Part shown: in pieces, positions 1-10,335 of the stretch
Layout: each line of letters begins with the position of its first letter
How positions within the stretch are numbered: position 1 is the stretch's first letter
Virus record (IMG/VR): IMGVR_UViG_3300035501_001769
Coordinates: 8,158-72,157 of that record
Strand: one strand, 5' to 3'
DNA from: a virus
Taxonomy: Duplodnaviria > Caudoviricetes
Length of the DNA stretch: 64,000 nucleotides
Made by a program: the position numbers and the translations under genes
Notes under the pieces: model-generated
The model's input: the letters and a program-made list of their open reading frames with translations, nothing else
The model's database searches: none
What the model was told of the DNA's origin: nothing

Positions 1-976
1 TGTGCCGAGTAACGAAAGCCAACAAACCTGAATCAAGCCGCACATCCATACCGTCATCCGATAGACCAACAACTACACCAAGAGAGCCATTGTAATATTT
101 TTTTTGGGGGTCATTAACTGTCATCATTACACGTGCGCCAAGTCTTAATGATAATTCAAGGTCGCAAGGTGCTGACATGGGGTTGAAGTCATTGGTTAAG
201 GTCGCTGTAAATGTATGGGTTGCTTCTCCTAATAGCTTGTTGTTGATTTCTTGAACTGTTGATTTTCGCGCACATAAATGTACCGCTTTATTCTCAAAGT
301 CATCGGCAGATTTAATACTTCTGCAACATTCTAATTCTTCAATATCATCATCTGTCAATTGGTATTCTCTTGTGCGGTTCAGAATGTTCACAAACTTGCT
401 ATCAGACTGGCGAAAGACTTGATTAAGTTCTACAATCTTAAACTCCGTTTTACGCCACACCTCCGCGTGAAAAAAGTAAGAACCACGATAATAGTGCTGA
501 AGGACCACCAATTCTTCTTTCTTAACCACAGGAGGGAGCTGGAACAGGTCACCAATCATGACAATTTGAATACCGCCAAAAGGCTGTTCGTTGCTCAGTA
601 TTAACCTTAGCTTACGGTCGATATAATCAAGTACATCAGGGCGTACCATACTAATCTCGTCAATGATGATAGTATCAACCATCTGGAGCATTTTGATTTT
701 GTTAGGCGATACATTTCTCTTAATCACATCATCGGGGGCGAGAACACCGAAGGGAATTGATAATAGGCTATGAAGCGTACAACCACCGGCATTAATAGCG
801 GCTACACCGGTAGAGGCGGCTATAACAAAGTTCTTTTTAACAGTCCTGAGAATGTGGCGAAGCAAAGTTGTTTTGCCGGTTCCTGCTTTGCCTGTAAGAT
901 AGAGATGGTCTGTGCTATATTGAATGATGTCAATAGCTTGTTGCATCTCAGGCGTTATTACGATTTCAGATTTCAT
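1..976 (-). CDS. Pif1/RecD-like SF1B helicase (5' part; runs off the window start; not in the ORF track)
   Basis: Manual translation from ATG at 976: MKSEIVITPEMQQAIDIIQYSTDHLYLTGKAGTGKTT (Walker A) ... ASTGVAAINAGGCTLHS ... IIIDEISMV (Walker B) ... FGGIQIVMIGDLFQLPPV ... VFRQSD; all are Pif1-family motifs. Confidence 0.9.
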   Translation of the reverse strand, partial: MKSEIVITPEMQQAIDIIQYSTDHLYLTGKAGTGKTTLLRHILRTVKKNFVIAASTGVAAINAGGCTLHSLLSIPFGVLAPDDVIKRNVSPNKIKMLQMVDTIIIDEISMVRPDVLDYIDRKLRLILSNEQPFGGIQIVMIGDLFQLPPVVKKEELVVLQHYYRGSYFFHAEVWRKTEFKIVELNQVFRQSDSKFVNILNRTREYQLTDDDIEELECCRSIKSADDFENKAVHLCARKSTVQEINNKLLGEATHTFTATLTNDFNPMSAPCDLELSLRLGARVMMTVNDPQKKYYNGSLGVVVGLSDDGMDVRLDSGLLAFVTRH

Positions 977-2681
977 TGATAGTGAATAATTTATCCTTAT
1001 TGTCAAATAATATGTAATCACCTCGTTGTAATTCATCGGCATAAACTTCAATTGGTTCATCTTCGCCTTCACGTTTCACAACCAATTCAGCATTAACATC
1101 AAGGCTGAGAATGTGGTTATTGTCGAGAGTGACATTGACTGATTCAATTGCTTGCTTTTTGCCACATACAACCGTTGTATTTGCCGGATATAACCCTGCG
1201 CGTTCAGGAAGTAGAAAACGTTCAAAAATCAGGTCATATTTCATCGGATCTACAAGCGTAATGCCAAGCAGATACAGCAATAGAGAACCGGCAGCAGAGC
1301 CACGACCACAACCAACTAAGATACCGTTACGCTTACACCAGTTAACTGTGTCGTATTGTACAAGCAAGTAGTCGATATTGTCGGTGGATTCTATGATGTA
1401 CTTCTCATATTCCATCTGCTTACGATACTTGTCAATCTCTGAAGCCGGAACAAGGCGTTGCAGACCATCTTCCAACAACTGATTAAACATATTGTGAGTT
1501 GTCTTATATTTTGCGGCTTCTTCTTCGGTCATGTAGTACTTAGGCATATAGTTACGAGATGTTTCCCATCTCGCCTTAGCACCATCAGCAATCACGATTG
1601 TATTAGCGCAACATTCACGGAATATGCCTAACACATCCCACTTATCGGCATCGAATAGCTGAAGGAAATACGCATAATGCTCATCTATGTCTTTAAAGTA
1701 TTGGTCCTCGGATTGTTGATGAGCAGCACCGATAGCAATCTTGTTCAGGATAATCTTGTTTCTTGCATCATCCTTGTCAAGATAGTAGCAATCGCCAATA
1801 AGCACCGGTGGCACCAAGCCTGAGTTATACACGTTATCAAAGTAGTGTTTGGTTGCTGTCAGCGTAACAATGTCAATACGTTCTGCTTTATATTCAGATA
1901 AGTCCACTTGGTATAATACGTGAATAAACTTGTCAATAAACTCAGTATCAATTAAATCCATGTGACCGCTAATCCATTCAGCAGTATTCTTGCCAAACAC
2001 AAGCACGTTACCTTCAGCATAACTTAATAATTGGTCTATTGTCAACGTCTTATCATCCGGATTATCAACCATTATTGTCTTTTGGATTCTCAGCAGATTA
2101 CGTAGACCTTTTTGAGTTTGCACGTACACTTTAGCTTCTACTTTGTTATCGTCATCGTCTGTAAAAACCAAACTGTAACCAAAGACAGGATTGATATTGG
2201 CTGAAGCACATTCTTTTTGCAACACAAATAAACTCGCCATCGTGTTAAGGTCACACACGCCAAGAGCTGCATGACCAAGATATTTAGCCTTAGTAACCCA
2301 TTGTTTGGGCATAAAGCTACCGTTAAGTAGTTCGTAAGGCGTATGTACACCAAGATTAACATACGGTATGTCAATCTCTGTCGACACTCGTTCACCTATG
2401 TATTTGAGGATATTGAGAGAAAACTCTGAATTGAAGTTGTGGTAATAATAATTATCTCCAAACTTGAAGATAACATAGTGAATATCTTCTGCTTCAAGCG
2501 CTTCTCTATCTTCGACAAGGTTAAACTCCATCTCACCTGTTTCGGTGGGTTTAAAAATTGATTTGATTTTGGTCATGTTCTGGTAGAACATCTTGCCGAC
2601 TCCATCAATCAACACACATTCCTTATCGATTACTGCGTGTTTGATTTTATTGTTTCGGAGCCATTCGGTTAACTTATTCAT
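966..2681 (-). CDS. dnaE: DNA polymerase III alpha subunit, N-terminal half only (PHP domain plus start of palm), ending in a Hint/intein-like tail
   Basis: HTPYELLNGS (PHP), GCGRGSAAGSLLLYLLGIT, FERFLLPER; the ORF stops about 77 aa later with no PDID catalytic motif. Confidence 0.9.
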   Translation of the reverse strand: MNKLTEWLRNNKIKHAVIDKECVLIDGVGKMFYQNMTKIKSIFKPTETGEMEFNLVEDREALEAEDIHYVIFKFGDNYYYHNFNSEFSLNILKYIGERVSTEIDIPYVNLGVHTPYELLNGSFMPKQWVTKAKYLGHAALGVCDLNTMASLFVLQKECASANINPVFGYSLVFTDDDDNKVEAKVYVQTQKGLRNLLRIQKTIMVDNPDDKTLTIDQLLSYAEGNVLVFGKNTAEWISGHMDLIDTEFIDKFIHVLYQVDLSEYKAERIDIVTLTATKHYFDNVYNSGLVPPVLIGDCYYLDKDDARNKIILNKIAIGAAHQQSEDQYFKDIDEHYAYFLQLFDADKWDVLGIFRECCANTIVIADGAKARWETSRNYMPKYYMTEEEAAKYKTTHNMFNQLLEDGLQRLVPASEIDKYRKQMEYEKYIIESTDNIDYLLVQYDTVNWCKRNGILVGCGRGSAAGSLLLYLLGITLVDPMKYDLIFERFLLPERAGLYPANTTVVCGKKQAIESVNVTLDNNHILSLDVNAELVVKREGEDEPIEVYADELQRGDYILFDNKDKLFTINEI

Positions 2682-4708: not shown

Positions 4709-6082
4709 TCAGCTTCTACTACATAACGCTAAATTCATTGTTCGCTTCTTATCATAAAACCTTTCATGCTCATAATCAGTAGCAATTCTGAAAGCCTCAC
4801 CCTTCCTGAAGAATCGAGCCTTAGCCACATGAAGCCGCATCGTACCTTCTTTTTCCTCGCGTGATGACTGGTTAAGAGTTATCAAATGGGTAAGCGGTCG
4901 AGCAAGACCTTTGGCTTCCGCTGTGTTATAAGCTGTCAGTACATTCTTTTCATCGTTTAACCACTCTTGGTTTTCGATGGTTGATTGATACGTTACGACA
5001 ATCCAAACATTCTCATCACTCGCTAAGTCTTTCAGGTCATTCGCCACACTAATACGTTTCAAGCGTTCTCCTTGGTCGCTGTAATGTTTACCCGAAGCGT
5101 CTGTTAACAAGTCCATAGAGTCGATAATGATAATATCGGGTGCGAATTTGTATTTGCGCTTAAAGTCTTGAATCGCCTTATGAATATCTTTGGTTGATAC
5201 CTGAGAATTGAACTTAGGGTAAGACTTAACATATAGCTTGCCTGATACCTGTTTAAGTTCTTCCTCAATCTCCTGTAATTCCTTGTCGGTCAACAAGCCA
5301 TTCTCAAACTTATAGGTGCTACATGATGCCAATGAAGCTGAATATGCGTCAATAACTTCAGCTTCACTACCTTCAAGCTGAAAGTGAAGTACGTTAAGAC
5401 CATCCATTTGACACGCACATTTACCTACCCAACGTGCGATGTGAGATTTACCAACACCGGTGGGTGCAAGAAAACATGATAACTGACCGCGAAGATTACG
5501 TGATTGGTTACGTATATCAAGCTCATCAATGTAGAAACGCACAACTTCTTTAGCTTGTCCTTCAGTGTTACGCTTTTCTTTGTTTTGCACATATCGCTGG
5601 GTGAAGTTACCTGTAATATCGACAAACTCAGCAGATTGTAAAGAGAACTTATTAACCCAATCGCTATACTCCACCAACCGTTTTGTCGCTGCATCTACGC
5701 CTGTACGGTTGTATAAGTCGATAAGCTCCTGATACGTTTTTTGAAACTTGACCTGTTTGATATACGTTTCAAGCTGAGCCATTGCATCAGCGGTTGGCAG
5801 CGCATTATTATAGTCTGACAATATCTCATCAAACAAAGAACGTGCAGCACGTGATGATGCCAAAGACTGCATGATTACCGATTCTTGCGGTATCTTTTTA
5901 TTCTTCTTATAATAGTCGGTTATGGCAGTGTGAAGTGCTTGATAATCCTTGTTGGGTAGCATGGACTTATCAAGGTGTTCTGTCATAACCGCTAAGATGT
6001 ATTCATTATTAAGACATGACGAATACAAATCCCCCAGAAATTCCTCCGTGAGAAGTGGATTTGATTTATTTAGCGGTGCCAT
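4709..6082 (-). CDS. dnaB: DnaB-like replicative helicase
   Basis: Walker A APTGVGKS, HFQLEG, IIIDSMD, VTYQ; next to primase. Confidence 0.85.
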   Translation of the reverse strand: MAPLNKSNPLLTEEFLGDLYSSCLNNEYILAVMTEHLDKSMLPNKDYQALHTAITDYYKKNKKIPQESVIMQSLASSRAARSLFDEILSDYNNALPTADAMAQLETYIKQVKFQKTYQELIDLYNRTGVDAATKRLVEYSDWVNKFSLQSAEFVDITGNFTQRYVQNKEKRNTEGQAKEVVRFYIDELDIRNQSRNLRGQLSCFLAPTGVGKSHIARWVGKCACQMDGLNVLHFQLEGSEAEVIDAYSASLASCSTYKFENGLLTDKELQEIEEELKQVSGKLYVKSYPKFNSQVSTKDIHKAIQDFKRKYKFAPDIIIIDSMDLLTDASGKHYSDQGERLKRISVANDLKDLASDENVWIVVTYQSTIENQEWLNDEKNVLTAYNTAEAKGLARPLTHLITLNQSSREEKEGTMRLHVAKARFFRKGEAFRIATDYEHERFYDKKRTMNLALCSRS

Positions 6083-6656
6083 ATTCGCTTCTTAATCTAT
6101 ATAATTCCGGATAATTTTTTTGTGTTTCGCGTTTACAGTCATTGATATAACTACATTCATGACAAGCTGCTGAAAGCGGACTCCAACCTAATGTTGATTC
6201 CTGACACAGCACATATCCTACTCGTTGGTTCAACATTCTGCGTTTGGTCGGTTCCTCAGCTTCAACGTATATGTATTGAGCTTGTGGGTGTTGGCTAAGG
6301 TCGCGTATTTGGTCGAGTAAATAACTGCGAGAAATACCACCGCCTTCAAGCCACAAATCTTCATAATATCGCTGTTGGTGCTTTCGTTCCCTGAACTTAG
6401 ATATAGCCGTAGGACCAAAAATCACGTTAGCTTGCTGAGGTTGTATGCTATTACGCCTGTTATATGCTGCAAAAATGATAAAGTCGGTTAACCGTTCTTC
6501 CCCCAGTTCACCATATTCTTTTGCCATCCTCGTATTGAAAGCCGCCAACGCTTTTTGGGTACTCCCCCCTTGTGATAATTTAAGAGGGGAGTTTAGCTTG
6601 TCTTGAAGGATTGATAGCAACTTAACTGTGTTTTTTAGCAATCTTCCTTGTTCCAT
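6066..6656 (-). CDS. Hypothetical protein with C-terminal Cys cluster
   Basis: 196-aa ORF overlapping both neighbours; CQE...CHECSYINDC. Confidence 0.6.
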   Translation of the reverse strand: MEQGRLLKNTVKLLSILQDKLNSPLKLSQGGSTQKALAAFNTRMAKEYGELGEERLTDFIIFAAYNRRNSIQPQQANVIFGPTAISKFRERKHQQRYYEDLWLEGGGISRSYLLDQIRDLSQHPQAQYIYVEAEEPTKRRMLNQRVGYVLCQESTLGWSPLSAACHECSYINDCKRETQKNYPELYRLRSEYGTAK

Positions 6657-7263
6657 TTCGATGTAGTGAGTTTCTTAACTGTTGTCGAGCAAGGAACAAG
6701 CGACTCTTAATTGTGTCGATATTAGGAGAACTTAGATTGCCCTTCTCGTACTCAATTTCAGCTATTTCCTTCAGTGAATAACCTGTTGTCTGAAGGATAA
6801 AAGCATCTCGGTACATTGGTTTGAGTCCATCTAAAGCTATCAAAATATCATCACTGAGCATTGTACGGTAGTTGTCAATTGTCATCGCATTAGCTGAGAT
6901 GTCATCAAGTTCATAACTACCTGCCACCTGCTCAGATACATTACAATCGAAGTCCTTGCGTTGTTCTTGCTTCCATCGCTCACGGTTCAACTTATACACA
7001 TGACGTTTTGTGCAAATGTGAATCCACGGTCGAATATCTGTTGTCGGATCATAAGTTTCGATACCTTTATACAATATCGTGAGGACTGAGTAATAAAACT
7101 CTTTTACATCAGCGAAGTCATTGGTGTATTGGCGAGTCAACTTGTATATCATCCTAAATTTAGGCTTGATAAGTTCGTTGAATAGCTGATTACGCCTTTG
7201 AGTTTCTTCGTCAGTTAGCGTACTTCGCTTTCGCTTGGATTGGCTTGTTTCTTCTTCTCCCAT
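6622..7263 (-). CDS. Phage-encoded RNA polymerase sigma factor (sigma-70, ECF-like)
   Basis: Region 2-like YKGIETYDPTTDIRPWIHICTKRHVY; region 4 HTH GYSLKEIAEI...TIKSRLFLARQQL. Confidence 0.85.
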   Translation of the reverse strand: MGEEETSQSKRKRSTLTDEETQRRNQLFNELIKPKFRMIYKLTRQYTNDFADVKEFYYSVLTILYKGIETYDPTTDIRPWIHICTKRHVYKLNRERWKQEQRKDFDCNVSEQVAGSYELDDISANAMTIDNYRTMLSDDILIALDGLKPMYRDAFILQTTGYSLKEIAEIEYEKGNLSSPNIDTIKSRLFLARQQLRNSLHRNGTRKIAKKHS

Positions 7264-7499
7264 GAAGCTGCAACCTCTTGAACAAATAAATCAGATGCAG
7301 CCGCAGGTAAACCTTTAGCTTCACAATACCTTTTCCATGTATTGTTACGTTTATTAAATTCCACCCGAACTTCTTCATCAGATGGTTGTGGCTTCTTGGA
7401 TAGGAAAGCGTAAAATTCCATTAGCAAATCCCCAAGTACCGCGAAATTTTGTGAGATAATCCTCTCTTTTAATCGCCTAAGCCTTCTACTTTGACTCAT
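7215..7499 (-). CDS. Hypothetical protein
   Basis: 94-aa ORF tightly packed in the operon. Confidence 0.55.
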   Translation of the reverse strand: MSQSRRLRRLKERIISQNFAVLGDLLMEFYAFLSKKPQPSDEEVRVEFNKRNNTWKRYCEAKGLPAAASDLFVQEVAASWEKKKQANPSESEVR

Positions 7500-7520
7500 A
7501 TTGTTGTGATGATAGATTGG

Positions 7521-8009
7521 TTATAAGTTGTATTTGATGATGTAGTAATAGAAGATATGTGTTGCATCAGCTTCATTATCGTCAATTGGGGTAATTCCCC
7601 AACGTCTAACACAAAACAGCTTCATCATATCTTTATCAGCATTGCCGCTACCGGTTGCCCATTTCTTGACAGTTTTGGGATTTACAAAAGCAGGTTCGGG
7701 TAAGTTTAGCTCGTCACAGACTTCAAATAGGATTCCCCTAAATTCAGCAAGTTTCACTGAGGATTTAAAGCCGCCGATGGCGTTGCCGGCACTCACATCT
7801 TCCGCGACAATTTGTTTGATGCCATACTTTTGTATGTAGTTGATTAATGTGTCGCGGAAGGCTTTGTGTTGTTTATTGTCGTTTCGATGTTTAGCCTCGG
7901 TAAAATCCCACGTACCACTGGAATATACTGAGTGATAGCCGCAATGTGTGGCGATGTCGAGGCTAAGAACTTGTTCTCTGGTTACTTTTTCTTTTACTTC
8001 ATGATTCAT
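7521..8009 (-). CDS. ruvC: RuvC-like Holliday junction resolvase
   Basis: LSLDIAT..GY, IVAED, DNEADA acidic triad. Confidence 0.8.
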   Translation of the reverse strand: MNHEVKEKVTREQVLSLDIATHCGYHSVYSSGTWDFTEAKHRNDNKQHKAFRDTLINYIQKYGIKQIVAEDVSAGNAIGGFKSSVKLAEFRGILFEVCDELNLPEPAFVNPKTVKKWATGSGNADKDMMKLFCVRRWGITPIDDNEADATHIFYYYIIKYNL

Positions 8010-10335
8010 TAATAATTATATTAGCTATGTTGTTATGTTTGACCACCACTAATTTGTGGGGATAGTTCTCGTGTATAAGACCATGACTTACAACCAACGA
8101 TGTAATTTGAAGGGAGTTGAGCGCATCAAACATACTTGCCAAACCACTTTCATCAGTTGCATCCAAGATTTCATCGAGAACAAGCAAGTCAAGACCGTTA
8201 CCCTTATCACTATCGAGATTGCTGAGGGTGTGCAAAGCCAAGATACTTGCTAAGTTAACTCGTGTCTTTTCACCTTCGGAGAATTTGCCAAACGAACCAC
8301 AATCAATGCCGTCACGAATAATTCCAATCGAGATTTTATCTCTAATTTTGCCGGATTTAAGTAGGGTAAAACCGGCAAAGCGCACACGAATGTCGCTGCC
8401 AATCTTTTCAAGGAAGTCGTTAGTAATTCGTGAAAGTGCATCAATCTTAGAATTAGCCAAGTGCGTCTTAAAGTCAACAAACCTACGCTCTTGCATCTTC
8501 AACTCGTTCAGTTCGTTTTCGATGTTGTGTAATTCTTTGAGATGGCTGCTTAAACTTATTTCTTGTCTGTTTTGTCGCTTTTTAGCATCAATCAATGCGT
8601 CATCGGTTGTCTGCTTTTCGAGCTTATCTATTGTGTCATAGTAAGTGGGTATCATATTATCCAACACCGTTATCTCAGCATCGTGTTGTCTGATAGTGTT
8701 TCGATAACCGCGTATTACACAGTCCAAACTATCAAAAGCATCATCAAACATACGCTCTCTAATTTTAAGCATTGAATCTACCAAGTCATTCATTGACTTA
8801 ACAGCGTTATCCACCTGCCACTGTACGTTTTGTAATTCGATTTGTTTTTCTCTGCTGGCAACTTTGCATTTGTGTAAGGCATCAGCTATTGCGTTACATT
8901 CAGCTCGTGCCACTTCTACAGAGTCCATTAGCTCTTTTAGTTGAGTTTCTTTTTGTTCTACCTGTATAGTCTTATTTTCGATGTCTTTCTTAATGGTTGC
9001 AATGGCTTCAGTTTGTTCCCTTACAATATCATTAAGCTCATCTACCGATTGTCCTGAAGATACAACAAAGGCGTGAGAGCATTTCGGGCAAGCAATCGCG
9101 CTCATTAGCTTAGTCTTAGCTTGCATCAAAGCTGCTTCACATACACTTAGTTTTTTCTTTTCACGAGCTATATCTTGTTCTATATCAGCTTGTTGATGCT
9201 TAATTGCAGTATATTCAACGCGCAAAGAAGCTAACTTGCTTTCTTTAACTTCTTCAGCTTGAACCAACAACTTGTTTGCCTTATCAACATCTATCTCTGC
9301 TGCACTCGCTTCATTTTTGAGGGTAAACAGCTTTTCTTCTAATTGATTTGCTATTTTATCCTTTTCAAGAAACTCATCTTTGCTTCTTTGTGCTTTAACC
9401 AAATAGCTATCTGTTAATATTGCACCCTTGATAGGTTCAAGAACCTTAATCACGCAACCATGCACAGTGAAAATATTTTGTGAACTATTCTGAAGTGATT
9501 GTAACTCCTTGTCAGCTTCTTCAACCTCATTAATAAGATTGTTACACGTTTCAATTTCTTTTTTATGATTGGCAATATCTTCTAATGCACGTTCAATAGC
9601 CTGTTTGGTCTTTTCGATAGTCTGAAGTTTAGCGGCTTCTCTTTCAGGTGCGCTATTTTCAAGGCTTTCTATCTGGCTATTAATAGCTGACAGTTGACCT
9701 TGGTCGTAAGATACTGTAATCTCTTTGTTGTGTAAGTCAGCTTCAAGTGCGGCAATATCCTTTCCAAGATATTCAATAGACTCATCAACCAACACACCAT
9801 TACTGAAACGATTGATAAGTTCTTTCTTCTCTCTGTCCGAACAAGTCAGGAATGATTTATACTTGTGCTTTGATAGAATGAAATTAGAGAACATATCATC
9901 CTTGCTGATACCAATTGTGTCGAGAATAAATCTATTATATTCATTTACATTGGCTTGCACTTCAGCCACATATTCGCCATTAGAATTTAAATCTCTGAAT
10001 GATACTGTGATAGCTTGTGAAGCGTTGCGACTAATGACACGTTTAATTATCATAGACTTGTTATTAGCCTGATTATCCAATGTTAATCGGATTGTAGCTT
10101 CATCATGTTCGTCATTGATAATTTCTTCTAACTTGGTTATGGGGCGTAAAGGTTCACCGGTCAGACCAATTGCAATAGCTTCTATTAAAGCTGATTTGCC
10201 TGAGCCGTTAGATTGTTGAGATTCATTGTCGGCATTATAACCGAAAATAAGGGTGGTGCAGCCTTGTTTCGGGGTATAATTAAGTTCTTCTAATACGCAG
10301 ACATTTTTAGCGTAGATGTTTTTTAATTGCCACAT
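7999..10335 (-). CDS. sbcC: SbcC/Rad50 (gp46-like) ATPase
   Basis: GSGKS Walker A, coiled coil with CPKC zinc hook, FSEGE signature, LLVLDE Walker B, SH loop. Confidence 0.9.
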   Translation of the reverse strand: MWQLKNIYAKNVCVLEELNYTPKQGCTTLIFGYNADNESQQSNGSGKSALIEAIAIGLTGEPLRPITKLEEIINDEHDEATIRLTLDNQANNKSMIIKRVISRNASQAITVSFRDLNSNGEYVAEVQANVNEYNRFILDTIGISKDDMFSNFILSKHKYKSFLTCSDREKKELINRFSNGVLVDESIEYLGKDIAALEADLHNKEITVSYDQGQLSAINSQIESLENSAPEREAAKLQTIEKTKQAIERALEDIANHKKEIETCNNLINEVEEADKELQSLQNSSQNIFTVHGCVIKVLEPIKGAILTDSYLVKAQRSKDEFLEKDKIANQLEEKLFTLKNEASAAEIDVDKANKLLVQAEEVKESKLASLRVEYTAIKHQQADIEQDIAREKKKLSVCEAALMQAKTKLMSAIACPKCSHAFVVSSGQSVDELNDIVREQTEAIATIKKDIENKTIQVEQKETQLKELMDSVEVARAECNAIADALHKCKVASREKQIELQNVQWQVDNAVKSMNDLVDSMLKIRERMFDDAFDSLDCVIRGYRNTIRQHDAEITVLDNMIPTYYDTIDKLEKQTTDDALIDAKKRQNRQEISLSSHLKELHNIENELNELKMQERRFVDFKTHLANSKIDALSRITNDFLEKIGSDIRVRFAGFTLLKSGKIRDKISIGIIRDGIDCGSFGKFSEGEKTRVNLASILALHTLSNLDSDKGNGLDLLVLDEILDATDESGLASMFDALNSLQITSLVVSHGLIHENYPHKLVVVKHNNIANIIINES

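Follow-up and report, generated by a model that had tools for sequence, protein, structure and literature searches.

The locus described here raises the question of how a phage can be served by a replicative polymerase gene that stops just short of its catalytic residues, and of what the extension at the broken end of the product might be for. The gene, here called dnaE-N, lies in a 64,000-nucleotide stretch of a Caudoviricetes genome (positions 8,158 to 72,157 of IMG/VR virus record IMGVR_UViG_3300035501_001769), hereafter called the window. Coordinates without a locus label refer to the window, and all features given in it are on the - strand. An intact open reading frame (ORF) of 571 amino acids at 966..2681 encodes an N-terminal region, a PHP domain (residues 111-244, 1950..2351; Pfam PF02811, E=1.2e-11), the N-terminal part of the Pol III alpha palm (residues 399-495, 1197..1487; PF07733 positions 3-99 of 260, E=1.7e-27) ending in FERFLLPER, and a 77-amino-acid C-terminal extension, hereafter the tail (residues 495-571, 969..1199). 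The tail resembles a degenerate N-terminal intein half (IntN) with a Hint-like fold. The reading that we favor, with a probability of roughly 65%, is that the tail and a matching segment on a second polymerase chain are a domesticated, non-splicing split Hint domain that would bind to form a non-covalent clasp between the two halves of DnaE.

The dnaE-N chain lacks the catalytic PDxD motif, and its coverage of PF07733 ends at position 99 of 260. Beyond the palm part, the only Pfam match in dnaE-N was a weak one to Intein_splicing (residues 499-560, E=0.037). ORF and Pfam results therefore agree with an earlier note on this DNA, which had described a DnaE ending 77 residues after FERFLLPER without PDxD or the C-terminal half. 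In unsplit DnaEs the motif FERFLN.(E/G)R is followed, after 2-3 residues, by (M/L)PD.D.DF, and from this motif order the cut in dnaE falls just before the catalytic aspartates, 2-3 residues ahead of PDxD. Comparison with PHROG returned 'DNA polymerase' families, of which phrog_13169 (463 positions) reaches residue 554 and so takes in most of the tail.

The next gene, as the earlier note had it, is not the C-terminal half of DnaE; it encodes a Pif1/Dda-like superfamily 1B (SF1B) helicase (1..976; Pfam PF05970 PIF1, E=4.3e-34). The dnaE-N stop codon (966..968) lies inside an 11-nucleotide (nt) overlap with the helicase start (ATG at 976-974). The helicase gene continues past the window edge and encodes 446 amino acids when complete (L002:2072-3412, - strand). 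A search of the whole record with Pfam models located a 725-amino-acid ORF, dnaE-C, directly after the helicase gene and about 340 bp past the window edge (G000:C1 about 5644-7821, equal to L003:433-2610, - strand). Its start overlaps the helicase end by 29 nt, giving the gene order dnaE-N, helicase, dnaE-C. The dnaE-C product opens with a 33-amino-acid segment, hereafter the head, followed by SLPDVDNDF, with head and body in one frame, and it contains PF07733 positions 93-260, the finger domain, HHH_6 and an OB fold. The DnaE domain set (PHP, PDxD palm, fingers, helix-hairpin-helix, OB) is thus present once, spread over two ORFs, and no other DNA_pol3_alpha match was found in the whole record. 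The two ORFs make one complete C-family DnaE in two chains. The earlier note had proposed looking in the same genome for a DnaE-C gene with a short segment resembling a C-terminal intein half (IntC) ahead of the catalytic motif, and such a gene is present. Its account of a missing C-terminal half holds insofar as that half is not encoded by the gene following dnaE-N; the half is neither lost nor elsewhere in the genome, since it lies directly after the helicase.

The tail was analyzed with an alignment and profile of 28 sequences, and an AlphaFold2 model was built with that alignment. The model has a five-strand core at tail residues 20-66, with a predicted local distance difference test score (pLDDT) of 68-80, and floppy ends. 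When it was compared by VIA-align with 48,161 representative PDB chains, all 25 chains with a Z-score of at least 2 were intein, hedgehog autoprocessing or bacterial intein-like (BIL) domains. Scores for these 25 chains ranged from 2.2 to 4.9; the best were the Pho PolII mini-intein (4.9), PI-PfuI (4.5) and KlbA (4.0), and the matches included the split or split-derived inteins Npu DnaE, gp41-1, NrdJ-1 and Aes123 PolB1. On Npu DnaE IntN the model spans residues 44-99 of 101, a coverage that would make the tail the second half of an IntN, ending at the canonical split site. Inteins and hedgehog domains also took the first ranks in Foldseek, but with E>1, none of them significant. The earlier suggestion of a Hint fold for the last 77 residues was in this way borne out by a structural search that returned Hint matches only, and the tail is predicted from its model to have a Hint-like (intein-type) fold.

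Sequence profiles gave fainter signals in the same region. Intein_splicing was the commonest Pfam match when the 28 tails were scanned singly (24/28; best E=5.4e-5, E=0.0022 for this phage). These matches cover profile positions 38-100, which is the block B region, and the Hint module was matched by three tails. In the ESM Atlas a cluster bearing Intein_splicing appeared at rank 5 with a score of 0.78, a weak lead. An hhalign comparison of the paired tail and head with inteins from the same DnaE-C family was weak and collinear (P=0.0012, probability about 20%). It paired the tail D-x-D-A with the block B T-x-N-H and YADEL..GD with RTDEL.g.D, and it placed the hydrophobic strand of the head before block F and the head V.(L/I)D on the block F VYDV. 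One part of the earlier reading found no support in the tests: the first 18 or so residues of the tail, taken there as block A, have pLDDT below 50, and hhalign puts no block A there. As a separate observation, 17 of the 28 tails also weakly match Pfam DrmE_C, the C-terminal domain of the DISARM protein DrmE (best E=0.0017), which may reflect just a shared beta motif.

The residues required for protein splicing are missing across the family. Directly after PER the tail begins A-G-L, invariant in the 28 tails and near-invariant in 100, so that no Cys, Ser or Thr occupies residue 1. The block B Thr-x-x-His is absent, its positions reading D-x-D-A across the family (D-V-N-A in this phage). The head ends in G-x-x-G-S before LPD, without His or Asn; a final His-Asn, His-Gln or His-Asp is lacking. 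Most members keep the Ser before LPD, with Ala or Gln in some, and a Cys in the head is Thr or Met in several, this phage included. With these residues lost, canonical splicing is excluded and a spliced product is not expected by known chemistry. The earlier description of a dead intein-like fragment, with neither a nucleophile at position 1 nor a TxxH in block B, therefore extends from this phage to its relatives. Some distant lineages have Cys directly after PER (P0148, P0156, L069) or His-Pro at the block B position (P0154, P0156), and judging by the aligned sequences these residues appear to be relics of a working past. Scans of IMG/VR and a metagenome collection with P0156 and P0148 gave nothing useful.

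Bona fide inteins of 147-283 amino acids do occur in the same DnaE-C family at another position, between FNK and SHATAY, in P0187, P0188, P0195, P0203, P0219, P0232, P0245, P0270, P0283 and L040 (8067-11099). They share host protein, phage group and Hint fold with the tail and head pair. Unlike that pair, they are contiguous, begin with Cys1 and end in ...CN/S (the slash marking the junction); the long forms carry HNH, and most have a recorded Pfam Intein_splicing domain. In L040, a dead split Hint and a live-looking intein are found within one polymerase.

The head has the length of an IntC and can be likened to an IntC minus its last strand. Modeled alone, it has no secondary structure (pLDDT 34-62), which would fit a segment that folds only on its partner. 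Isolated IntC fragments are also unstructured. The net charge is -8 for the tail and +1 for the first 17 residues of the head in this phage, and the family means are -12.9 and +3.3, respectively. An acidic N part with a basic C part is the charge pattern of natural split inteins (PMC2677866). Tail and head also co-vary in size across lineages, both being long or both short. No natural single chain with both segments was found at adjacent N and C genes in L051, phi13:1 and Larrie, where the two are out of frame.

Searches with the tail region gave 416 clusters (90% identity) of N-halves of about 570 amino acids, and the first 90 residues of dnaE-C, head included, gave 1,439 matches. The split is shared by 58 IMG/VR loci, most of which have the helicase between the halves; four (L051 type) have no gene there. 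Cellulophaga and Tenacibaculum phages, which fall outside these 58 loci at about 30% identity, have the same split site, also with no gene between the halves, and carry a tail of about 45 and a head of about 14 amino acids. Other occupants of the interval in relatives are an HNH_3+NUMOD4 gene (L049 and others) and a GIY-YIG gene (L070). Identity to relatives is 48-60% for the tail and 57-66% for the whole N-half, and 12 of the 77 tail columns are invariant and 16 nearly so. By these alignments the tail appears about as conserved as the polymerase. When the 28-tail profile was run with HMMER against 1.84 billion representatives, the tail was found solely at the C-termini of DnaE N-halves or fragments. 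No fused form inside a longer DnaE was seen in that search, nor in a word-based search for longer proteins.

Two unsplit polymerases show other states of the site. Chryseobacterium phage MA9V-3 (L067:3989-7546) has an unsplit DnaE with no insert, and Bacteroides phage DAC22 (L068:3779-7603) has an unsplit DnaE with an insert of about 58 amino acids at the exact site. The DAC22 insert resembles a short Cellulophaga-type tail and head joined by GGG; relatives of DAC22 were not found in IMG/VR. Together with the split phages, these two show that three states exist at the site: none, contiguous and split. All split members conserve the tail and the head, both of which unsplit MA9V-3 lacks. The extended tblastn matches H17-H21 were considered as inteins at this site and rejected as ordinary contiguous bacterial DnaEs.

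On the favored reading, the replicase would be made as two polypeptides, cut 2-3 residues ahead of the catalytic PDxD, and the break would carry the halves of a shrunken Hint domain, with the tail as the second half of an IntN and the head as an IntC minus its last strand. With every splicing residue replaced, the chains would stay unligated. The last strand of the tail would pair with the first strand of the head as in a split intein, and the small beta domain restored by this pairing would keep the two palm fragments together. Translation of the overlapping dnaE-N, helicase and dnaE-C genes is probably coupled. In origin, the element would most likely be the relic of an intein or homing-endonuclease invasion at a highly conserved site, now fixed as an obligatory pair of extensions, one C-terminal (CTE) and one N-terminal (NTE). 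The presence of DnaE-C, the Hint-only structural matches and the family-wide loss of splicing residues support the earlier proposal of a non-splicing split intein. The clasp is suggested by the conservation of the tail, the opposite charges of tail and head in the family and their co-variation in size; tail-head binding, a need for it in polymerase activity and the evolutionary route are inferences.

Several results weigh against this reading. The AlphaFold2 tail model is of middling confidence (mean pLDDT 62), and because individual VIA-align Z-scores are low, with a maximum of 4.9, the Hint argument rests on the exclusivity of the structural matches. All matches of tails to Intein_splicing and to the Hint module are sub-threshold, with 18.3 bits for the tail alone and 14.3 for the whole protein against a cut-off of 35.8 for Intein_splicing. 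The best E-value of the tail profile against PDB sequences was 0.23, the Pab PolC intein ranking third, and the head alone matches no Pfam or PDB profile. Tail and head together come to about 108 amino acids here and about 59 in Cellulophaga phages, shorter than a full Hint domain, so that part of the fold must be missing. Finally, in the comparable split NrdA of phage Aeh1, deletion of CTE and NTE is reported to have left the halves binding each other (cited in 10.1101/2022.08.31.505936), which implies that the palm interface may supply much of the affinity here. That result, and the ending of two PHROG families of other phage DnaE N-halves (phrog_7513 and phrog_11127) within about 12 positions of FERF, a hint that the split is tolerable without a long tail, would suit a view in which the extensions are decaying neutral relics and the halves assemble through the native palm interface alone. 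We consider this view unlikely. The invariant and nearly invariant tail columns contrast with about 60% identity in the polymerase itself, the tail is kept in every one of hundreds of clusters and even in the distant Cellulophaga phages, and tail and head co-vary in size.

Unlikely too, if a shade less so, is that tail and head are a clasp-like CTE and NTE derived from a homing-endonuclease cassette in the sense of T4 mobA, without intein descent, their likeness to Hint being convergent or partial. The architecture is the same as that of the MobA and MobE elements, in which CTE and NTE are an alternative to inteins (10.1101/2022.08.31.505936), and in relatives, as described below, a mobile HNH cassette demonstrably includes the head; the sub-threshold profile scores and a domain too small for a whole Hint fold point the same way. 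Against such an origin, all structural neighbors at a Z-score of at least 2 are Hint domains and the tail stops at the canonical split site, the hhalign match is collinear over block B, the post-B strands and block F, and the Cys1 and block B His-Pro relics persist in distant lineages. A working but atypical split intein that trans-splices both halves is very improbable, even though a Hint-like fold ends at the canonical split site and the mostly conserved Ser before LPD could serve as the +1 residue. Class 2 and class 3 inteins can begin with Ala, which counts in favor of trans-splicing. The N-junction nucleophile is nevertheless missing, D-x-D-A replaces block B, no His-Asn, His-Gln or His-Asp ends the head, and the head Cys and putative +1 Ser are replaced in some members, whereas real inteins of the same protein family keep Cys1 and ...CN/S and pass Pfam. 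The remaining suggestion, that the split gene is a pseudogene and the phage uses another polymerase, has nothing in its favor beyond the interruption itself and scarcely merits belief. It was rejected, as the ORFs of both halves are intact and conserved across hundreds of phage sequences, each DnaE domain is present once in a record with no second DNA_pol3_alpha, and the genes form a coherent replication module.

The domesticated split Hint can be placed beside three known arrangements. Fractured genes combine natural split inteins with a free-standing homing endonuclease and include three DnaE loci (Dassa et al. 2009, PMC2677866). There, likewise, an essential replication gene is cut at an intein endonuclease-insertion position, with IntN on the first ORF and IntC on the second, and a gene is lodged between the halves; acidic N parts go with basic C parts, a charge pattern that the family means here follow and this phage shows less clearly, its head being only +1. 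HNH or GIY-YIG genes occupy the interval in relatives of this phage. The fractured genes, however, keep all five catalytic residues and splice, whereas here none is kept and the Hint domain is truncated, and in place of an endonuclease this phage has the Pif1 helicase. The cyanobacterial Ssp/Npu DnaE split intein (Wu et al. 1998, cited in PMC2677866) is similarly encoded by two genes, each with half a Hint domain at the broken end. Its insertion site is next to CFNKSH instead of before PDxD, and it is an active intein with halves at distant loci, in contrast to the non-splicing halves in one operon here.

The third comparison is with the T4 MobA element (gene 39 - mobA - gene 60) and with Aeh1 nrdA as split by MobE (Bonocora et al. 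2011, cited in PMC5009743; 10.1101/2022.08.31.505936). In these, too, an endonuclease cassette splits a conserved enzyme next to a metal-binding motif, with a conserved C-terminal extension on ORF1 and an N-terminal one on ORF2. Relatives of this phage have the full set of an HNH gene, a replacement head, a gap with a stop codon in it and an insert reaching to the landing codon. Host gene and endonuclease differ, the extensions here are Hint-like, and the gap is 50 nt in the known element but 7-8 nt, with an upstream hairpin, in the relatives; the locus of this phage has neither endonuclease gene nor bypass gap. CTE and NTE tails persist after the endonuclease and bypassing are lost and may be needed for dimerization or function (10.1101/2022.08.31.505936). 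The earlier note had called such a repurposing unusual; it would be less isolated than supposed, as it fits this CTE/NTE pattern. New here are CTE/NTE-type tails with an intein-type fold.

In eight relatives the head ORF of dnaE-C stops right after ...SLP, and the body (D-V/I-D...) resumes 7-8 nt further on in another frame (L012:3772-3900, L019:9114-9240, L042:9031-9160, L049:9543-9670, L059:9550-9680, L060:9025-9700, L064:9582-9710, L069:8400-8520). The junction reads CCG, a stop codon, 1-2 nt and NCG, followed by GAT. The take-off codon is CCG in all eight, and the codon before GAT is UCG in five, GCG in two and CCG in one. A fixed third base with a variable first base is the opposite of what a translated codon would show, and it is the pattern needed for peptidyl-tRNA(Pro) to re-pair there. 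In 8/8 gap loci, a hairpin of 10 bp with a loop of 3 nt reaches as far as the first base of CCG; 80/80 cells are paired (100%), and 5/10 pairs are changed on both sides. None of 500 shuffles reached these statistics, slid controls were 33-60% paired, and the hairpin is missing from loci without the gap. An HNH gene lies just upstream in 6/8 gap loci and in none of about 44 uninterrupted loci, although the loci are not phylogenetically independent.

Near-isogenic pairs delimit the insert. L060 matches L041 at 97-98% identity apart from one segment, where L060 has 659 nt and L041 has the 98 nt of its native head. The last base of the gap is exactly where this replaced segment stops. The HNH ORF begins with the ATG of the native head, and the HNH stop codon overlaps the start codon (ATG) of the replacement head. 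The pairs L064/L057 and L012/L018 behave in the same way, and L049 and L042 differ solely by the HNH gene. These pairs indicate a mobile cassette that extends on its right side to the end of the gap. Ribosomes probably cross the gap by a short hop like that known from T4 gene 60/mobA, which is the most economical reading; a +1/+2 shift that adds two residues is a possible alternative. The layout fits a proposal in which forward bypassing is driven by pairing within the mRNA as it exits the ribosome (10.1101/2024.12.09.627546). A separate start of translation for the body was rejected, since loci of the 8-nt class offer no start codon in frame and initiation further on would remove the catalytic Asp residues.

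A fuller statement would join the two halves of this account: an ex-split intein domesticated as an obligate non-covalent joint of the replicase in a very large group of Bacteroidota phages, with a break point that is still an active homing site and an HNH-cassette gap read by a short, hairpin-assisted hop from CCG to NCG. We regard this combined statement as evenly balanced between holding and failing. If it is true, inteins and CTE/NTE tails, treated as separate strategies so far, become linked; an intein can end as a permanent structural part of its host enzyme rather than vanish; and a replicative polymerase can work with a catalytic palm assembled from two chains. The related cassettes may give a second natural programmed ribosome-hopping system tied to a homing endonuclease, besides T4 gene 60, and they come as near-isogenic plus/minus pairs. 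For protein engineering, the tail and head would be of interest as small natural fragments that lack cysteine, do not splice and may bind each other. Because the family is abundant among Bacteroides phages of the human gut, the arrangement is more than an oddity of a single genome.

The source record is a 72-kb IMG/VR provirus whose nearest cultured relative is Bacteroides phage BS-TP1 (60% identity). The neighborhood of the locus is a phage replication module with genes for a primase, a DNA methyltransferase, a DnaB-like helicase, a sigma factor and SbcCD. Residues 1-105 of dnaE-N, which precede the PHP domain (2369-2681, - strand), have no Pfam family match; they are conserved among the IMG/VR relatives, whose tblastn matches begin at residue 1. 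The closest relatives, L009 (7483-7722) and L010, which are 99% identical, have a tandem duplication of the final three tail codons (N-E-I), giving 574 amino acids compared with the 571 found here (969-977). Further ORFs were seen between the dnaE halves of some relatives: a Cys-rich ORF of about 125 amino acids ahead of the helicase (L039:7707-8095), an ORF of about 260 amino acids with methyltransferase-like motifs, recognized by eye, together with an HNH-like ORF instead of the helicase (L069:6706-8400), and a 131-amino-acid ORF with no Pfam match (L071:4505-4897). In the record of phage BS-TP1 (PQ571274; L004:~8030-9653), dnaE-N and a Dda-like helicase are annotated and dnaE-C is unannotated; its dnaE-C ORF reaches the end of the stretch examined, 30 nt before the end of the linear record.

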